Positions 3,799 through 44,243 of a stretch of DNA of 64,000 nucleotides are shown one piece after another. Under the pieces are notes generated by a model. That model was given only the letters and a program-made list of their open reading frames with translations, had not been told where the DNA came from and ran no database searches. The stretch is from contig CALLDL010000148.1 in assembly GCA_937998305.1 (NCBI GenBank), positions 8,839 to 72,838 of the forward strand. Reading direction: 5' to 3'. The DNA is from an uncultured Desulfobacterales bacterium. GTDB lineage: Bacteria > Desulfobacterota > Desulfobacteria > Desulfobacterales > UBA11574. The translations under genes were made by a program, and so were the position numbers. Every line of letters begins with the position of its first letter. Position 1 is the first letter of the stretch.

Positions 3799-4213
3799 AT
3801 CATTTTGTCCTTACATTGTTGAAAGATATAGAACCTTTAAGTAACTCCATCTTCAAATAGCAAATAACAATCAATCCTTCAATTGAGCGTTTTCGATCAC
3901 TATGAGCATAAAATTTCAAGGATTTTCGATTGACCCACACAGGGTTTATTGATATTTATTTTTTCGAGTTGAAGGAGTGCTGTCACCAGTTTTCCTTACT
4001 CAAAGCCTCCACTGAATCCCATTAAACAGGCTTCTTCCATTTCGGTGGAGGCTTTTCTATATCGAATCAATACGTTAAAATCAATAGTTTCTCATCAATT
4101 TAACGTTCACATTATGATAGTGTTTCTATCTTTTGAAAATATATGGCGATTGCCACTTTCATCGATATTCACTTGAATGAGACCTATCCAAGTAACATTA
4201 AATAAGATTTCAG

Positions 4214-4245
4214 CCTCCGGCTCGTAGAGCCTACGCCTCGGAGAG
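4214..4245. repeat. solo copy of the 32-nt CCTCCGG...CCGGAGG-type hairpin module
   Basis: cctccggctcgtagagcctacgcctcggagag resembles the module nested in MITE copies A1 (20715-20746) and A2 (40210-40241). No family-A terminal repeats flank it. Confidence 0.55.
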
Positions 4246-4271
4246 CAGAATTAAAGAGTTCTAAACTTGAG

Positions 4272-5363
4272 TCAAACTTTTTCCAGTACATCGTCAATAA
4301 CACGTAGTGCCTGTTTGACAAGTTCCATATCCGCCTGGGTACCCATATGCCCCAGTCTAAAGACTTTGCCGGCCATGGGCCCATAACTGCCGCCGACTAC
4401 AAGCCCGTGCTGTCGCAGTTGTAAGTTAAATTCCGTCCAGTCAACTCCGTCAGGGACGTTGACGGCTGTAACCGTCGGAGACGGTACAGCATCCGAAGCC
4501 GGAAAAAGCGACAATCCCATCTTTATTATTTTGTTGCGGCAAAATTCTGAAACCTTTTCATGCCTGGCATAGCTGTTGAGCAGTCCTTCATTCAGAATCA
4601 ACTCGGCTCCGGCGTTAAGACCCGCAACTCCTTGCCAATTCGGCGTATAAGGAAAATAATGTGTTGCCTGTGCCTTATAAAAAGGTTTCAAGGCATCATA
4701 CCCCACATAATTGACGTTGTGAATGATGTCCCATGCTGATTCACTCACCGATAAAAAGGCCATGTCCGGCAAAGAAGACAAACATTTTTGTGATCCTCCC
4801 AGACACAGGTCGATGTTCCACTCATCACTTAAAACGGGCGTACCCCCTGCACTGGCCACGGCATCCACATACAGGAGGGGAACGTTATGGCGTTGCTTCA
4901 GTTTTCCCAATTCAGCAATGGGATTTAAGGTGCCGGATGGCGTTTCGCAGTGAACCACGGTAATCATTTTCGGCTTGAATTGAACAATGGCTGCCTCAAT
5001 TTCGGACATATCCGAAATGGTTTCCTTATACGGCAAACGTATTTTATTTACGTCGGCACCAATGGAGTGCGCCATGTCGCCGATTCCGTCGCCAAAAACA
5101 CCGGTGGCGATGGCCAGTACGCCGTCTCCAGGAAGAAGACAGCTTTTCAAAGCACTCCACAATGCCAGCATGCCTTCCCCGGATTGAATGACGACCCGGT
5201 TATCGGTGCCGAGAATCATTTTCAGATTGACTTCTGCTTTGTTGTAAAGTTCCAAAAAATCGGCTTCCAAATCCGCCGAGCCAAAATTGGTCTGGTATGT
5301 GTCCAGAACAGCCTGGGGTAGTTTAACCGGCCCGGGAACCATTGGAATAGGATATGTTTTCAT
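4272..5363 (-). CDS. class V PLP-dependent aminotransferase (serine-pyruvate / alanine-glyoxylate type)
   Basis: 363 aa. Family-typical N-terminus IPMVPGPV and a GGSQKCL motif with the PLP lysine. Confidence 0.85.
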   Translation of the reverse strand: MKTYPIPMVPGPVKLPQAVLDTYQTNFGSADLEADFLELYNKAEVNLKMILGTDNRVVIQSGEGMLALWSALKSCLLPGDGVLAIATGVFGDGIGDMAHSIGADVNKIRLPYKETISDMSEIEAAIVQFKPKMITVVHCETPSGTLNPIAELGKLKQRHNVPLLYVDAVASAGGTPVLSDEWNIDLCLGGSQKCLSSLPDMAFLSVSESAWDIIHNVNYVGYDALKPFYKAQATHYFPYTPNWQGVAGLNAGAELILNEGLLNSYARHEKVSEFCRNKIIKMGLSLFPASDAVPSPTVTAVNVPDGVDWTEFNLQLRQHGLVVGGSYGPMAGKVFRLGHMGTQADMELVKQALRVIDDVLEKV

Positions 5364-12407: not shown

Positions 12408-12660
12408 TCACCTATGACTCATTTAAGGGAAACAGCGTATAATGTATACATCTTTTCGCAGATAGATCCAAGTTTCAAATCTGTTTCATCTGTTTTAACC
12501 GTATTGGTTAAGTAAGGAGTACCAAAAAAAATCAGGTCAAGGAAAAAAAGAATAATGCCCTGTAATTTAACGTAGGCAAGCTTTTTTATTGACTTTGTAC
12601 GATGGAATTGTTGAATTTTATAATATTTTAACAGAAAAATGGTGAGCTTCATAAACATAT

Positions 12661-12874
12661 GTACGTGTTCACGGGGTTTGCTTCCCCGTATAACGATATT
12701 GGCGGAGTGACCTCGTCATTTCAATGACTTAGCAGTGGGGGAGACCGCGGCTCCCGCATGTTTTTCGCGGGAGAACGCGGAGGGGGCAGGAATGCCACCG
12801 ATGCTAAGTCATTGAAATGACCGGACACGTAGACACCGGAGTGAAGCGGGGGAGCAAACCCCGAGAACACGTAC
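12661..12874. mobile_element. nested-palindrome MITE-like element, family D, full copy
   Basis: 28-bp terminal inverted repeat gtacgtgttcacggggtttgcttccccg / cgggggagcaaaccccgagaacacgtac (2 mismatches). Perfect 18-bp inner stem at 12716-12733 / 12803-12820. Innermost hairpin ctcccgc-N9-gcgggag. Copies at 36488 and 44160. Confidence 0.75.
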
Positions 12875-13024
12875 AAGCATGTTCCGTATTGGTAAAATGA
12901 TTTTTTCATGTTATGCTCATGAATATGAAAGGCATAATAAATTGGCCACATGGAATTGGCATGAATACAATTTGGATTTTTCCAACCGAAAAGTCCGGTT
13001 TTCCCCGGAAAATACCATTGAAAG

Positions 13025-18864: not shown

Positions 18865-20034
18865 TTAACCGGAACTATGTGAGGGACGGCGTTTGTCCTT
18901 TAATATATGATTGGAAATCACCACCCGCTGTATCTCGGAAGTTCCTTCATATATGGTAAACACCCGGGCATCTCTGTAAAAACGCTCAACCGGGTAGTCT
19001 TTAATAAATCCGTACCCGCCGTGCATCTGAAGCGCTTTTGCCGTAACCCGGTTGACCATCTCGGAAGCAAACAACTTTGCCATGGAAGCCTGTACCGTAT
19101 ACTTTTCTCCCCTGTCCTTCATAGCGGCGGCGGAAAGCATCAACTGTCGAGCCGCCTCAATTTCCGTGGCCATATCCGCAATGATCCATCGCAACCCCTG
19201 GAATTTTGAAATCGACTGCCCGAACTGCTCTCGATTTTTAGCATACTTAACAGCCGCATCGAATGCTGCCTGTGCAACACCCACCGACTGAGCTGCAATA
19301 CCAATACGTCCGCCGTCCAGGGCTTTCATGGCGATTTTGAATCCGTCTCCTTCTTCTCCCAGTATGTTTTCAACGGGAACTATGCAATTGTTAAAGATAA
19401 GATCCGTTGTATCGGAAGCACGAAGCCCCATTTTATCTTCGTCGTTGCCCACGGTAAATCCAGGCGCGCCCTTCTCAACCAAAAACGCACTGATACCATG
19501 GTGACGTTTTGCTTCATCTGTTATGGCGGTTACAATAACCAGGCCGGCATTCCGACCCGATGTAGTAAAACGTTTTGTGCCATTGATAATATATCCATCC
19601 CCTTTTCGAACCGCCGTGGTCGACTGTCTTACCGGATCGGATCCCGCGTGGGGTTCGGTCATGGCAAAAGCGCCGATAATATCTCCTGCTGCAAGGGGTT
19701 TTAAATATCTTTCCTTTTGATCCTCGGTTCCCAACCGGTAAATGCTTTCACACACTATGGAATTGTGGACCGACATAACCACTGCGGTTGAAGCACAGGA
19801 GTAGGCAATCTCTGAAAGGGCCAGGACATAGCTCACAGTGTCGGCTCCTGATCCTTCATATTCAAACGGAACCATCATTCCCATGAGTCCCAATTCTCCC
19901 ATCTTCTTTAGATTTTCAGACGGAAATTCCTTGGTTCGATCGCGTTCCGCAGCGGCAAGGGCCACAACTTTTCTTGAAAACTCCCGGGCCATGGTCTGGA
20001 TCATGATCTGCTCGTCAGTCAGCTTAAAAAACAT
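18865..20034 (-). CDS. acyl-CoA dehydrogenase (short-chain / butyryl-CoA type)
   Basis: ACAD motifs are present (YEGTSEIQR near the C-terminus). ATG 20034 is preceded by AAGGAG, so the ORF-track start at 20052 is probably six codons too long. Confidence 0.9.
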   Translation of the reverse strand: MFFKLTDEQIMIQTMAREFSRKVVALAAAERDRTKEFPSENLKKMGELGLMGMMVPFEYEGSGADTVSYVLALSEIAYSCASTAVVMSVHNSIVCESIYRLGTEDQKERYLKPLAAGDIIGAFAMTEPHAGSDPVRQSTTAVRKGDGYIINGTKRFTTSGRNAGLVIVTAITDEAKRHHGISAFLVEKGAPGFTVGNDEDKMGLRASDTTDLIFNNCIVPVENILGEEGDGFKIAMKALDGGRIGIAAQSVGVAQAAFDAAVKYAKNREQFGQSISKFQGLRWIIADMATEIEAARQLMLSAAAMKDRGEKYTVQASMAKLFASEMVNRVTAKALQMHGGYGFIKDYPVERFYRDARVFTIYEGTSEIQRVVISNHILKDKRRPSHSSG

Positions 20035-20107
20035 GGACGACTCCTTTAACATCTGTATTTCGTGGCTTATAATTTAAAACTCCGGTCCAACCTTATCGTA
20101 TCCCGAC

Positions 20108-20659
20108 TTACGGACCGTAAATAACCACCAACAGCTCTGCTTTTTCTTCTCCGATATTCCTCAACATGTGCCGTATCCCCGAATTAAAGTGCAGCGAATC
20201 TCCAACATCGAGTGTGTTTATATGATCTCCCACAACCACTTCAATCTTTCCGGCCAGGACGTAAACAAATTCTTCACCTTCATGATGGTATCCCACCCCT
20301 TTATGATCCGCCATGGCGTCGATGGAGACCTTGAATGCCTTTAAATGTTTATTCTCAGCACCGGGTGTTAGTGTTGTATACGCATAATTCTCGGTACGCT
20401 TTGTATAGGCTTTAATACGACGTCTTAAGCTCGTTTCCTGTTCTTTCAGGAAAAAGCCCGAGTCTATTTCCATCGCCCTTGCAATCTGCAAAAGGGCGCC
20501 CACCGGCGGAATTTTTTTACCGCTTTCCACAGCTTTAAGATAATCAATGGAAAAGCCGGTTTCATTGGCAACACGATCTAAGGACATCTTCTTTTTTAAT
20601 CGTTCCTTTCTTATCTTCTTCCCTACCGGGACAACAGCCTCGGCTTTCTTTCTGGCCAT
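20108..20659 (-). CDS. XRE-family HTH regulator with C-terminal cupin domain
   Basis: 183 aa. HTH_3 segment (MSLDRVANETGFSIDYLKAVESGKK) plus a cupin_2 segment (GEEFVYVLAGKIEVVV...GDSLHF). RBS AAGGAGG at 20664-20670. Confidence 0.85.
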   Translation of the reverse strand: MARKKAEAVVPVGKKIRKERLKKKMSLDRVANETGFSIDYLKAVESGKKIPPVGALLQIARAMEIDSGFFLKEQETSLRRRIKAYTKRTENYAYTTLTPGAENKHLKAFKVSIDAMADHKGVGYHHEGEEFVYVLAGKIEVVVGDHINTLDVGDSLHFNSGIRHMLRNIGEEKAELLVVIYGP

Positions 20660-20674
20660 ATCGCCTCCTTATTT

Positions 20675-20918
20675 AGTGTTGATCCATAAATGAGGATTTT
20701 TGTTCAAGATCAAGCCTCCGGCCCGTAAGGCCTACGCCCCGGAGGGGCATGCGAAAAAAATAACCACCCCAGTACGATCTGCCGGACCTGCGGGGCAGGC
20801 AGGCATATGTTTAATATTCCGAGGATTATTTTTTGAGCATAACCCCAGAGAAATAGGCTTCGCATTTCACAGGGCAGGCGCAGAGATTGGGCAAAAAGAC
20901 CATTTATGGAGGGACACT
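20675..20918 (+). mobile_element. MITE-like element, family A, copy 1 (244 bp)
   Basis: Imperfect inverted ends of about 37 nt: agtgttgatccataaatgagg... / ...ccatttatggagggacact. Flanked by direct ATTT (20671-20674 and 20919-20922). Near-identical to 41305-41516 except for a 32-nt hairpin insertion. No coding capacity. Confidence 0.8.
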
Positions 20919-21768
20919 ATTTATATTCATAAAATCCCCGCCCCGTCTTTCTGCCCAGCCAGCCGGCCTCAACATATCGTTTGAGCAGCGGACAGGGCCG
21001 GTACTTTGGATCTTTAAATCCATCGAATAGAGTATCCATAATTGCCAGACAGGTATCCAATCCGATGAGATCCGCCAGTGCCAGAGGACCCATGGGATGG
21101 TTCGCGCCCAGTTTCATGACAATGTCGATATCTTCACGGGAACCCACACCATGATACAGGCAATACACCGCTTCATTGATCATAGGCATGAGTATTCGAT
21201 TGATGATAAAACCGGGGTAATCACTCGCTTCAGCCGGTGTTTTACCCAGCTTTACAGCCAAGTTCCATGTGGTCTTAAACGTGTCATCCGTTGTTCGCAA
21301 CCCCCGGATAATCTCAATCAGTTTCATTACCGGAACCGGATTCATAAAATGCATCCCGATAATTTTATCCGGGCGGGATGTATGGGATGCAATCCGTCCG
21401 ATGGGAATGGAAGATGTATTGGTTGCCAGAATCACATGAGATTCACAGATTTTATCCAGGTCTTTAAATATCTGATACTTGATCGCCTCATTTTCTGTGG
21501 CAGCCTCGACAACAAAATCGACAGACCCCATATCTTTGATGTCTACGCTGGTTCTGATCCGTTTAAGAACAGCATTCACCTCTTCATCCGTCATTCTGCC
21601 TTTGTCGACACTTCGTCTTAAATTCTTCTTAATGCCTGCAAAACCTTTTTCGACAAATTCAGTCTTGATGTCGTTCATGATGACCTCAAAGCCGCTCACG
21701 GCAGCAACCTGAGCAATACCGTTTCCCATCTGACCCGCACCAATAACGCCGAATGTTTTTATGTCCAT
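20917..21768 (-). CDS. hbd: 3-hydroxybutyryl-CoA dehydrogenase
   Basis: 283 aa. NAD fold [14 protein letters not shown] and a C-terminal [12 protein letters not shown] end typical of Hbd. Confidence 0.9.
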
Positions 21769-21777
21769 TTTTCTCTC

Positions 21778-22953
21778 CTATCGTTTTACCACCATGGCAA
21801 CACCTTCCCCACCCCCGAGACACAGCGAAGCAACCCCGATCTTTTTGTCCTGTCGAATCATTTCATGCAAAAGGGACACCAGCACTCGACATCCGCTGGC
21901 ACCGATGGGATGCCCCAGAGCGACACTCCCGCCGTTTACATTCACCTTTGCATGATCCAGGTCAAGCTCCTTCAGCACCGCTGCCGTCGAACCGCTGAAC
22001 GCTTCGTTGATCTCAAATAGATCGACATCTGAAAGGGAAATCCCTTCCTTCCTCAAACATTTTGGAATGGCCCAAATGGGTGCCACAAGAAGGTATTTCA
22101 TATCCATGCCAAAAGATGCCTGAGCGCCTATGGTCGCGATGACCCGGCATCCCAATGCCTTGGCTTTGTCTTTTGACATGACCACCACGGCTGCAGCACC
22201 GTCACTGATGATGGATGCATTGCCGGCCGTTCCCCTTCCGTCCTTTTTAAACGCCGGTTTCATTTTTGATAGAGCTTCAAAGGTCGTCTCACGGGGGCAT
22301 TCATCTTGATCAAAAATAACAGGATCGCCTTTTCGTTGGGGGATTTCAACAGGAACGATTTCATCTTTAAATCGACCGTTACGGATGGCTTCAAGCGTTC
22401 GAAGATACGACTCTGCGGCATAACGGTCCTGGTCTTCGCGGCTGATGTCATACTTTTCGGAACACAGCTCATTGGAAACTCCCATGTGAAAATCGTTGAC
22501 AATATCCCAGAGACCGTCATGAACCATGTGATCTTCAAGGGTGCCCGGCCCCATGCGATAACCAAAACGACCTTTTTCAAGATAATACGGTGCCATACTC
22601 ATGTTTTCCATTCCGCCTGCAACCGCCACATCGGCATCGCCAAGCTGGATAGCCTGGGCTGCCAGCATGACCGCTTTTAATGCTGAACCGCAAACCTTAT
22701 TCACGGTGATGCATTCAACCCCAAAAGGCATATCAGCCTTAACAGCCGCCTGTCGGGCCGGATTTTGACCGTAGCCGCAGGGCAGTACCATTCCCATGAT
22801 GATTTCATTTACCGTTTGTTTCTCAATGCCGGCGCGCTGGATGGCTCCTTCAATGACGATGGCGCCCAGTTTGGTCGCTCCAACGTTGCTTAAAGAACCA
22901 TTAAAATTGCCCAAAGGCGTCCGAACGGCACTTACGATTACTGCTTCTCTCAT
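21778..22953 (-). CDS. acetyl-CoA C-acetyltransferase (thiolase II)
   Basis: 391 aa. Active-site context VNKVCGSALKA, NVNGGSVALGHPIGASG and CLGGGEGVAMVV. Confidence 0.92.
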   Translation of the reverse strand: MREAVIVSAVRTPLGNFNGSLSNVGATKLGAIVIEGAIQRAGIEKQTVNEIIMGMVLPCGYGQNPARQAAVKADMPFGVECITVNKVCGSALKAVMLAAQAIQLGDADVAVAGGMENMSMAPYYLEKGRFGYRMGPGTLEDHMVHDGLWDIVNDFHMGVSNELCSEKYDISREDQDRYAAESYLRTLEAIRNGRFKDEIVPVEIPQRKGDPVIFDQDECPRETTFEALSKMKPAFKKDGRGTAGNASIISDGAAAVVVMSKDKAKALGCRVIATIGAQASFGMDMKYLLVAPIWAIPKCLRKEGISLSDVDLFEINEAFSGSTAAVLKELDLDHAKVNVNGGSVALGHPIGASGCRVLVSLLHEMIRQDKKIGVASLCLGGGEGVAMVVKR

Positions 22954-36255: not shown

Positions 36256-36487
36256 ATATTTTCTCCTCTGTTATTAACTTGAAATTCTATAGTTCTTCTA
36301 ATCTATTAGAATTATTATAACTGCTGTCTATGTCATCGTCATTACCACCCCGCATCAAGTGCAGAATAAATTGTAGCGCATTCCAGAATATTTTGAGGAA
36401 CCGAAAAGGAGCGTCTACGTTAAAAAGAAGGCCGGCACTAGTAAATATTTTATCACATTTGATTTTATAAAATGCAATAGATTTTAT

Positions 36488-36645
36488 GTACGTGTTAACG
36501 GGGTGTGCTTCCTTGTATAACGATATTGGCTGAGTGGCTTCTTCATTTCAATGACTTAGTAGTGGGGGAGACTGCGGCTCCCGCATGCTTTTTGCGGGAG
36601 AACGCGGAGGGAGCAGGAATGCTATCGCTGCTAAGTCATTGAAAC
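36488..36645. mobile_element. family D element, copy 2 (right terminal repeat missing)
   Basis: gtacgtgttaacggggtgtgcttccttg...tcatttcaatgacttagtagtggggg...gctaagtcattgaaa is collinear with 12661-12820. It is truncated before the right terminal repeat. Confidence 0.7.
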
Positions 36646-40014: not shown

Positions 40015-40169
40015 TATTTAAGCACCTTTTGTCATTTTTGGTTAAATTTTCATTTTACATAAATAAATACACCTCAACACCTGACATAAATTGTTCCTAT
40101 GCAAAATTTAATTAGTGTCCATCCACGATTGGGGGAGACATGCTTAAGTGTCCAATGCAGAAATTAGCT

Positions 40170-40380
40170 AGTGTTCAAACGAAAACTAGGATTTTTCGTT
40201 AAGATCAAGCCTCCGGCCTATAGGGCCTGCGCCCCGGAGGGGAAGACGAAAATTTTAACCACAGGAATACTGATAGTATTTCGAGGATTAAAATTTGAGT
40301 CTGACCCCAGAGAAATAGGCTCTGCATTTCACAGGGCAGGCACAGATATTGGCGAAAAAGATGATTTTCGTTCGGACACT
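40170..40380 (+). mobile_element. MITE-like element, family A, copy 2 (diverged)
   Basis: Ends agtgttcaaacgaaaactagg / gattttcgttcggacact. Carries the 32-nt hairpin module (40210-40241) and the conserved core ccccagagaaataggctctgcatttcacagggcaggc. A solo end-like sequence tagtgtccatccac lies at 40113. Confidence 0.75.
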
Positions 40381-41297: not shown

Positions 41298-41304
41298 CCT
41301 AGTT

Positions 41305-41516
41305 AGTGTCCGTCCATAAATGGTCTTTTTGTCCGATCTCTGCGCCTGCCCTGTGAAATGCGAAGCCTATTTCTCTGGGGTTATGCTCAAAAAATAATCC
41401 TCGGAATATCAACTATATGCCTGCCTGCCCCGTAGGTCCGGCAGATCGTACTGGGGTGGTTATTTTTTTCGCATGCCTTGATCTTGAACAAAAATCCTCA
41501 TTTATGGATGAACACT
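41305..41516 (-). mobile_element. MITE-like element, family A, copy 3 (212 bp, lacks the hairpin module)
   Basis: Reverse complement is near-identical to copy 1 apart from the missing 32-nt module. Flanked by direct AGTT (41301-41304 and 41517-41520). Confidence 0.8.
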
Positions 41517-41638
41517 AGTTAATTCAAAGGAACCGAAATTTTGCCTTGAAAAACCCAATTTGAACCCGAATATTCCTTTTAGCAAAAAATCATAATATAA
41601 ACAACAGGTAAAATATTCAGATTAACCTCGATTGAAGT

Positions 41639-42377: not shown

Positions 42378-42553
42378 AGTTTCCATCCACAATTGTAAAA
42401 TGGACACGGTGCGTTTCCTATTAATAAATGAGCAATTTTTGTCGGATCAAGGCCCTACAAGGGTTTACGGTGAGGTGTACCCCCTGTACGCCGTAGCGGA
42501 AAACCCTCGGAGAACGCAGATCCGGGCAAAAAGGGCTATTTATGGATTGAAAT
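42378..42553 (+). mobile_element. MITE-like element, family B-related, copy 3 (composite)
   Basis: Starts with a back-to-back mini end pair agtttccatccacaattgtaaaatggacac, then a second left end gtttcctattaataaatgagcaattttt. The right end is gggctatttatggattgaaat. TAAAT occurs within 1 nt of both ends. The inner hairpin region resembles B1. Confidence 0.6.
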
Positions 42554-42688
42554 TAAATTGAGTTTGGTGAAATATACCACAATTTACATTTCATGGCGAG
42601 AAATGTATTGATTTCAAATTAACCTTCGCGATAAGAACCTTTTTTCGTTCGTAAACGTTAACTTTCAACCTTAGATCGTCTCTGAACA

Positions 42689-44159: not shown

Positions 44160-44243
44160 GTACGTCTTCAAAGGGTGTGATTCCTCGTGTAACGATATTG
44201 GCGGAATGGCTTCGTCATTTCAATGTATACAAGACATTGAAAT
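44160..44243. repeat. family D element, copy 3 (left end plus collapsed inner stem)
   Basis: gtacgtcttcaaagggtgtgattcctcgtgtaacgatattggcggaatggcttcgtcatttcaatg-tatacaaga-cattgaaat. The core is replaced by a short loop. Confidence 0.6.

Follow-up and report, generated by a model that had tools for sequence, protein, structure and literature searches.

A modular, hairpin-forming miniature mobile element between hbd and an XRE/cupin gene in an uncultured Desulfobacterales bacterium

Introduction

What is the 244-nt segment that lies between the hbd and XRE/cupin genes of an uncultured Desulfobacterales bacterium, and how did it come to be there? We addressed this question in a 64,000-nt stretch of contig CALLDL010000148.1 (the window), in its source draft genome (G000; 3.35 Mb in 239 contigs, 43% G+C) and in related genomes. 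A preliminary description, made from the letters of the window alone, had taken the segment at positions 20675–20918 for a mobile and modular MITE. Many further copies, an insertion sequence (IS) with matching ends, empty sites in relatives and a discrete internal cassette all support that reading, and the segment is a copy of a small non-coding mobile element. Taken as a whole, the comparisons below make it very probable that it is a MITE whose ends copy the right end of an ISNCY-type IS of about 1.67 kb encoding a DDE transposase. A literature search turned up no published account of this family. What is new here is a series of orthologous states at one site, a second insertion specific to one lineage, a map of three cassette slots and a caution over the residence of the candidate transposase.

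Results

The segment is a palindromic element that carries three hairpin cassettes

The segment (AGTGTTGATCCATAAATGAGG ... CCATTTATGGAGGGACACT) has imperfect inverted ends of about 40 nt, close to the 37 nt first estimated, and is flanked by ATTT on both sides. The MITE proper, a member of what was termed Family A, measures 242 nt (20676–20917), or 244 nt when the flanking A and T are counted, as they were at first. Its left terminal inverted repeat, GTGTTGATCCATAAATGAGGATTTTTGTTCAAGATCAAG (20676–20714, plus strand), bears a rare tip variant, TTGA, common to the orthologous copies in three relatives (G002, G011 and G012); alignment of family members places the right terminal inverted repeat at 20879–20917 on the minus strand. 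Between these ends lie a 32-nt hairpin, cassette H (20715–20746), which is missing from a second copy in the window and from the orthologous copies in G002, G011 and G015; the CCCC...GGGGCAGG hairpin of cassette P2 (20767–20799), inserted at AACCA^CAGG of a 143-nt core; the central part of that core (20800–20842), identical to the orthologous G002 copy; and a 36-nt hairpin, cassette Q (20843–20878), inserted after GAGCATAA of the core. The element's coding capacity amounts to spurious ORFs only.

The second copy, on the minus strand, spans 41300–41521 with its flanking duplications. It is a 210-nt element (41306–41515) that has P2 and Q without H and is bounded by TAGTTA on both sides. A repeat finder paired 41304–41522 with the complement of 20675–20918 at 96% along an arm of 174 nt and 93% along one of 46 nt; in copy 1 the two paired arms are separated by exactly 32 nt, 20715–20746, and alignment agrees with the original observation that the inverted, near-identical copy at 41305–41516 lacks precisely this stretch. 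Both copies also have the rare T at tip position 6.

Other relatives in the window are more distant. A diverged one at 40170–40380 (plus strand) has a different subterminal sequence (AGTGTTCAAACGAAAA...), contains H and Q, and is flanked by a decayed duplication; its hairpin module, correctly noted at the outset, lies at 40209–40240. Just beside it, at 40114–40168 (plus strand), is a short remnant consisting of a tip that resembles the left end of the IS described below (AGTGTCCATCCACGAT...) followed by a second inner end (AGTGTCCAATGCAGAAATTAGC). A 177-nt member of a sister subfamily (42378–42554) has the same tips, a long G+C hairpin in its centre and the flanks TAAATA and TAAATT. The hairpin had also been reported to occur alone at 4214–4245, which did not hold up: a variant, H' (4213–4244), sits in a 49-nt insert (4205–4253), 27 nt past the stop of the minus-strand gene at 4272–5363, and this insert is itself nested in another dispersed repeat with many matches across the genus. 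The insert is absent from the orthologous place in G011 and is larger, with a nested hairpin, in G002. That longer G002 version (L091) has the extra hairpin nested in its loop (GCCTCCGGCT-CCGCTTCCAGCC...-CCGGAGGG), and similar double hairpins occur in G000 at C47:35220 and C51:13964. The window also holds a second dispersed repeat family, unrelated to the AGTGTCC family treated here, at 12658–12817, 36485–36644 and 44160–44225; its copies of 160 nt share 90% identity, and there are internal inverted repeats at 12660–12875.

The element belongs to a large family that is widespread in the order

An 18-nt tip, AGTGTCCATCCATAAATG, occurs 138 times in G000 when up to three mismatches are allowed and not once in a shuffled 1-Mb control, so the family is present far beyond chance. 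The tip is conserved across about 140 termini of the 3.35-Mb genome, and facing pairs 138–262 nt apart delimit at least 56 complete elements, all of which have (A)GTGTCCATCCATAAATG in common. The search for further genomic copies that had been proposed as a check on mobility was accordingly answered with dozens of them. Allowing at most one mismatch, we found the tip in 30 of 41 related genomes, against no matches to a reversed control pattern; its range takes in all genomes of the genus, the greater part of the family and, within the order, some further families. In two better-assembled relatives (G020 and G025) the tips bound 140–185-nt elements with lineage-specific interiors, and every one of the 13 loci inspected there in the search for autonomous copies was a MITE or a truncated copy. 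Ends lying near contig breaks, considered as candidate ends of an autonomous IS, proved to belong to the 177-nt sister MITE subfamily.

Insertion most likely duplicates six base pairs

The flanks of the 56 complete elements follow a clear consensus, with Y at position -6, T at -5 (84/112), A at -4 (96/112), R at -3, Y at -2 and T at -1 (102/112). In 28 of the 56 elements the central 4 bp of the two flanks agree fully, in a further 18 they differ once, and 21 elements have a perfect 6-bp duplication. The 4-bp repeats first described, ATTT at copy 1 and AGTT at copy 2, are indeed present, but they are better read as TATTTA and TAGTTA. Nine copies have a base other than A or T adjoining GTGT/ACAC, and in six of them the distal flank repeats that odd base (for example TACCTG/TACCTG, TAACTC/TAACTC and CAGTTA/CAGTTA), which argues for counting the outer base pair as part of the duplication; on that reading the element proper occupies 20676–20917 and the target-site duplication TATTTA occupies 20670–20675 and 20918–20923. 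A duplication of 6 bp (TATTTA here, consensus T-ARYT-A) is more likely than one of 4 bp (ARYT), the alternative that these tip-base variants displaced, even though the outer position is mismatched in 7 of the 28 copies whose central 4 bp are perfect.

A candidate partner insertion sequence has the same tips and target

No transposase gene is present in the window, as had been stated from the start; one candidate lies on another contig of the genome. This contig (C178) carries at 236–1903 a 1,668-bp IS with the tips AGTGTCCATCCA and AGTGTCCGTCCATAAATC (in longer form AGTGTCCATCCACGG... and AGTGTCCGTCCATAAATCGG...), flanked by TAATTA and TAGTTA. Its single ORF encodes a protein of 448 aa with DUF772 and DDE_Tnp_1 domains; the match of this protein to NCBIfam NF033593 (ISNCY_1) has an E value of 4e-138, well over the model cut-off. 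The ISNCY group recognised by NF033593 is probably the ISDol1 group of ISfinder, whose type element, ISDol1, has a direct repeat of 6–7 bp and came up in the literature in two passing mentions only.

The IS is single-copy in the G000 assembly; its homologues, at 61–84% identity, come from contigs of other, mostly Desulfobacterales, MAGs. In these MAGs both IS ends can be seen at nine loci, every one with the same tips, and at five of the nine the duplication is perfect and in the T-ARYT-A context. The suggestion that an autonomous IS with matching ends be sought is thus borne out by the C178 element together with the nine two-ended loci elsewhere. The transposase family is abundant in metagenomes (at least 7,961 clusters at E ≤ 1e-30, mostly on IS-length contigs), and the source annotations of these clusters read 'IS5 family' or 'ISNCY family'.

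The MITE shares with this IS its tips (AGTGTCCATCCA...), its duplication and the target context T-ARYT-A. Both MITE ends are of the right-end type and agree with the IS right end at 17 of 18 nt. Similarity between the MITE and the C178 IS is confined to about 12–17 nt of tip, BLAST finding nothing wider. The MITE lacks a transposase, and its interior is an unrelated palindrome. In the mechanism that we propose, the transposase would bind the tips of about 17 bp (GTGTCCATCCATAAATG), and insertion would take place at T-ARYT-A sites in a YTARYTAR context with duplication of 6 bp.

Presence of the IS does not track the MITEs. Unlike the MITEs, which are numerous in nearly all 16 genomes of the genus, the transposase is found in two (G000 and G007), so that most MITE-bearing genomes are without it; no transposase of this family was found in G011, a genome rated 100% complete. 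G007 has an intact transposase (80% identity) but only two matching tips, and G003 has about 170 tips and no transposase, a contrast from which we conclude that IS presence and MITE load are uncoupled across the genus. Contig C178 is 3,429 nt long, its flanks outside the IS have a G+C content of 33% (genome median 43%), and these flanks match nothing in the 15 other genomes of the genus. On account of its shortness, its composition and this want of a congeneric match, the contig may be an accessory or strain-specific island, or may have been mis-binned, so that residence in G000 of the bin's only transposase of this family is insecure.

A smaller unit with IS-like features is also scattered through G000. 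This mini-unit of about 35–46 nt (AGTGTCCATCCATAAATCTATATTGGGCACAAATTAAGTTTCC), in which an ...AAATC tip and an inner TTGGACA motif resemble the IS right end, stands by itself or is joined to the outer side of 180-nt elements, at C204:2407, C97:3143, C39:15852, C18:30569, C51:13964 and C33:587.

The hbd/XRE site preserves one insertion in several states

We searched the genus with the joined flanks of the element and read the junctions. In G004 the site is empty and reads CCTCCT-TATTTA-TATTCAT, with a single TATTTA, exactly as predicted; four other species (G013, G007, G003 and G010) have the same empty site with TATTTG. The element occupies the site in at least seven species. G002 and G011 carry a 143-nt element in the same place and orientation and with the same rare tip (AGTGTTGATCC), and G015 carries one of 144 nt. 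The left tip is retained next to an unrelated interior in G012, and decayed stubs of 30 nt and 51 nt remain in G009 and G006. The 244-nt form, composed of the core with H, P2 and Q, is that of G000, and its core differs from the G002 core by one base.

A tree of the flanking genes places G013, G007, G003 and G010 outside an ingroup that holds all occupied sites and G004; within the ingroup, resolution is poor (supports 51–79). From this tree we take the insertion to be old and inherited. Conservation of the segment across distant relatives, which had been named as the observation that would speak for an ancestral region, was not seen, the four outgroup species being empty. G004 (L014) has a clean empty site although the tree puts it among the carriers (support 79); this may reflect a precise loss, or the tree may be wrong at that node.

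Read along the gene strand, the empty site is ...AAA TAA GGAGG CGAT ATG. The insertion fell on the hbd stop codon and changed TAA to TAG, leaving the ribosome-binding site of the next gene intact; on the minus strand, the present TAG is formed by the TA of the right-hand TATTTA and the first G of the element. The comparison shows that an element, probably the 143-nt palindromic core, landed on the hbd TAA in an ancestor of part of the genus and has been inherited vertically since; a stop codon was preserved, as were the XRE/cupin gene's Shine-Dalgarno sequence and its ATG.

The site of copy 2 has a different history. At 41305–41516 all eight relatives compared (G002, G008, G012, G009, G013, G006, G001 and G007) are empty, five of them with TGATTA where G000 has a duplicated TAGTTA. 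This insertion is lineage-specific and, for that reason, recent; a close derivative with P2 and Q and without H transposed there in the G000 lineage only. The comparison of loci in relatives that the preliminary description had called for therefore yielded empty sites at both places, five at hbd/XRE and eight at 41305–41516.

Cassettes occupy three fixed slots and differ between orthologous copies

We aligned 44 oriented members of the family, 12 of which have exactly the length of the 143-nt palindromic core. Relative to this core there are three slots: slot H, after GATCAA, which receives the 32-nt cassette; slot P, after AACCA, which receives P1 (27 nt), P2 (33 nt) or P3 (about 31 nt), all of the form CCCC...GGGG(CAGG); and slot Q, after GAGCATAA, which receives the 36-nt cassette. 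Most combinations of cassettes occur across the copies, other copies having P1 or P3 in the P slot, and TTTCA^CAGGG within Q is a further place where P-type cassettes are nested. Other repeats, among them a MITE family whose tips differ (TGAGACC...), also contain H, P2, P3 and Q, and nearly all of the 26 H-like sequences in G000 lie within MITE-like backbones. That the family is modular through a discrete 32-nt hairpin at a fixed position had been recognised correctly, but this hairpin fills one of three slots and is not the only module.

Mapping 30 further elements of G002 and G011 back to G000 gave orthologous pairs that have diverged to different degrees. One pair is unchanged (L067), another differs by a single P cassette (L080) and a third differs at all three slots (L086), while two G011 elements (L070 and L072) share site and ends with G000 and have wholly different interiors. 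Some sites occupied in G002 or G011 are empty in G000 (L073, for example). Such varied pairs indicate that remodelling in place is common. At the L070 and L072 sites, which correspond to C5:3782–3961 and C63:1408–1587 of G000 and have the same position, flanks and tips, G011 carries a 143-nt Family A core and G000 a 180-nt element made of an unrelated palindromic interior and a 37-nt mini-unit. Judged by these alignments, this looks like replacement of the whole interior at a fixed site.

How do the cassettes come and go? We favour exchange from copy to copy over independent transposition of the cassettes, given the homologous slots, the almost exclusive occurrence in repeat backbones and the shared CA...CAGG junctions, where the microhomology is short. 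Cassettes would be exchanged between MITE copies by gene conversion or by template switching at hairpins. At the hbd site itself, three losses elsewhere would formally be as parsimonious as three gains in G000.

It is possible, if rather doubtful, that the cassettes of 27–49 nt are instead a second and smaller tier of mobile elements that insert independently into MITE backbones. They would do so without a duplication and at short motifs (CA^CAGG), so that resident MITEs grow in place, and they would nest within each other and pass from one MITE family to another even where the transposases differ. Several observations fit this: each cassette is a separate unit whose boundaries do not vary between copies; CA^CAGG is where P-type cassettes are found in the core as well as, nested, within Q; the same cassettes are found in MITE families with different tips; the 49-nt H' unit of G000 is missing at the orthologous place in G011; and the L080 pair differs by a single cassette. 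Yet we found neither target duplications nor terminal repeats belonging to the cassettes, and their near confinement to homologous slots in repeat backbones is what copy-to-copy conversion predicts. No Y1/HUH transposase (PF01797) was detected in G000 and G011 has a pseudogene only, and the Y1-like genes of about 320 aa that were inspected in relatives are without flanking cassette hairpins. Covariation in H, finally, comes down to a single pair, a double change in three sequences that is probably one event, and two alternative folds, with about 91% of the cassette paired, fit equally well; for these two reasons we make no claim of selected structure in H.

A RAYT/IS200 transposase was considered as the mover of the hairpins and set aside, there being no PF01797 gene in G000 and no hairpins near the Y1-like genes of relatives. 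The latter genes (L105, L106, L108 and L109, in G002, G009 and G015) are ORFs of about 317–335 aa with an N-terminal Y1_Tnp-like domain (MARPLR..YHV..RGN...HYHLL).

The element is probably part of an operon transcript

All genes around the element are on the minus strand: a thiolase gene (21778–22953), the 3-hydroxyacyl-CoA dehydrogenase gene hbd (20917–21768), the gene for the HTH/cupin (XRE/cupin) protein (20108–20659) and an acyl-CoA dehydrogenase gene (18865–20052). The element lies between hbd and the XRE/cupin gene and, as previously noted, its left end is 15 nt from the start codon of the latter. Its gene-strand RNA folds end to end at -87.2 kcal/mol (z -4.2), and as single-stranded DNA it folds with z -3.9. 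A sequence scan of the gene strand found no terminator-like or promoter-like site within the element, and in Rfam nothing in the window reached the gathering score, two chance-level matches (E 0.5–1) falling within 20600–21000. The end-to-end fold, the lack of such sites and the lack of an Rfam match suggest that the element is probably co-transcribed, as a long RNA hairpin, in a thiolase-hbd-XRE-acyl-CoA dehydrogenase operon.

A position inside an operon, a strong fold and retention in at least seven species are also what might be seen if the segment were not mobile DNA but an ancestral part of the hbd/XRE operon, acting as a cis-regulatory or structured-RNA region. We consider this highly improbable, because five species are empty at the site, one of them (G004) with the exact joined sequence, because dozens of copies lie in unrelated contexts, because two species retain mere stubs of 30 nt and 51 nt, and because no Rfam family matches. 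Only the slightest chance can be given to a REP/REPIN-type element moved on single-stranded hairpins by a RAYT (Y1 tyrosine transposase): element and cassettes alike are hairpins, the GTAG...CTAC of H is reminiscent of the REP tetranucleotide, and 13 of 16 genomes of the genus have Y1_Tnp genes, but the target-site duplications are clear and are not made by Y1 transposition, G000 has no Y1_Tnp gene (PF01797), repeats of the MITE family do not flank the Y1-like genes inspected in relatives, and a DDE IS with the same tips exists.

Discussion

The mobile element described here, a MITE with ISNCY-type ends, has counterparts in other bacteria. The nearest known ones are the ISNCY insertion sequences and MITEs of the hairpin type such as Chunjie. 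Correia/NEMIS of Neisseria and ERIC/IRU of enterobacteria are MITEs that are palindromic over their full length and often co-transcribed with their neighbours, and they come in size variants that arise from internal segments. The present MITE is like them in being palindromic and in having size variants from internal segments, and unlike them in that ends, sequences and hosts are unrelated. Correia duplicates TA, and we know of no transposase for it. RNase III processing has been shown for Correia; by that analogy, we conjecture that RNA containing the present element may likewise be processed.

BOX elements, in which tandem boxB units stand between boxA and boxC, come close to the present MITE in combining a fixed frame with variable internal modules. 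Their modules are tandem, whereas those of the present MITE are distinct hairpin cassettes in three separate slots that nest in one another. BOX of Streptococcus pneumoniae is a non-autonomous repeat that, in the summary given in PMC3184786, is transcribed and thought to be mobilised by an IS in trans. The same summary (PMC3184786) covers work by Chen et al. (2008) on Chunjie, a MITE of Geobacter uraniireducens Rf4, which is 178–235 bp long, forms a hairpin, and has 21-bp terminal inverted repeats and 9-bp direct repeats. On that account Chunjie resembles our MITE in its similar size, in a deltaproteobacterial-type anaerobe as host, in lying within an operon without breaking it and in the recognition of empty sites by comparison. 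It differs in its 21-bp terminal repeats and 9-bp direct repeats, which would point to a transposase other than the one implied here, and cassette modularity is not reported in the summary in PMC3184786.

The hbd site presents a single insertion in seven states, taking in the empty site, the core, the cassette-loaded form, the swapped interior and the stubs, and as such it is an unusually clean natural record of the birth, remodelling and erasure of a bacterial MITE. It is also a concrete place in which to ask whether small hairpins move independently. The repeat fills many intergenic gaps in Desulfobacterales MAGs and breaks their assemblies, and its tip GTGTCCATCCATAAATG, 6-bp T-ARYT-A duplication, 143-nt core and three cassette slots together make a signature for annotation. 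The segment between hbd and the XRE/cupin gene is ordinary selfish DNA and not a regulatory element.
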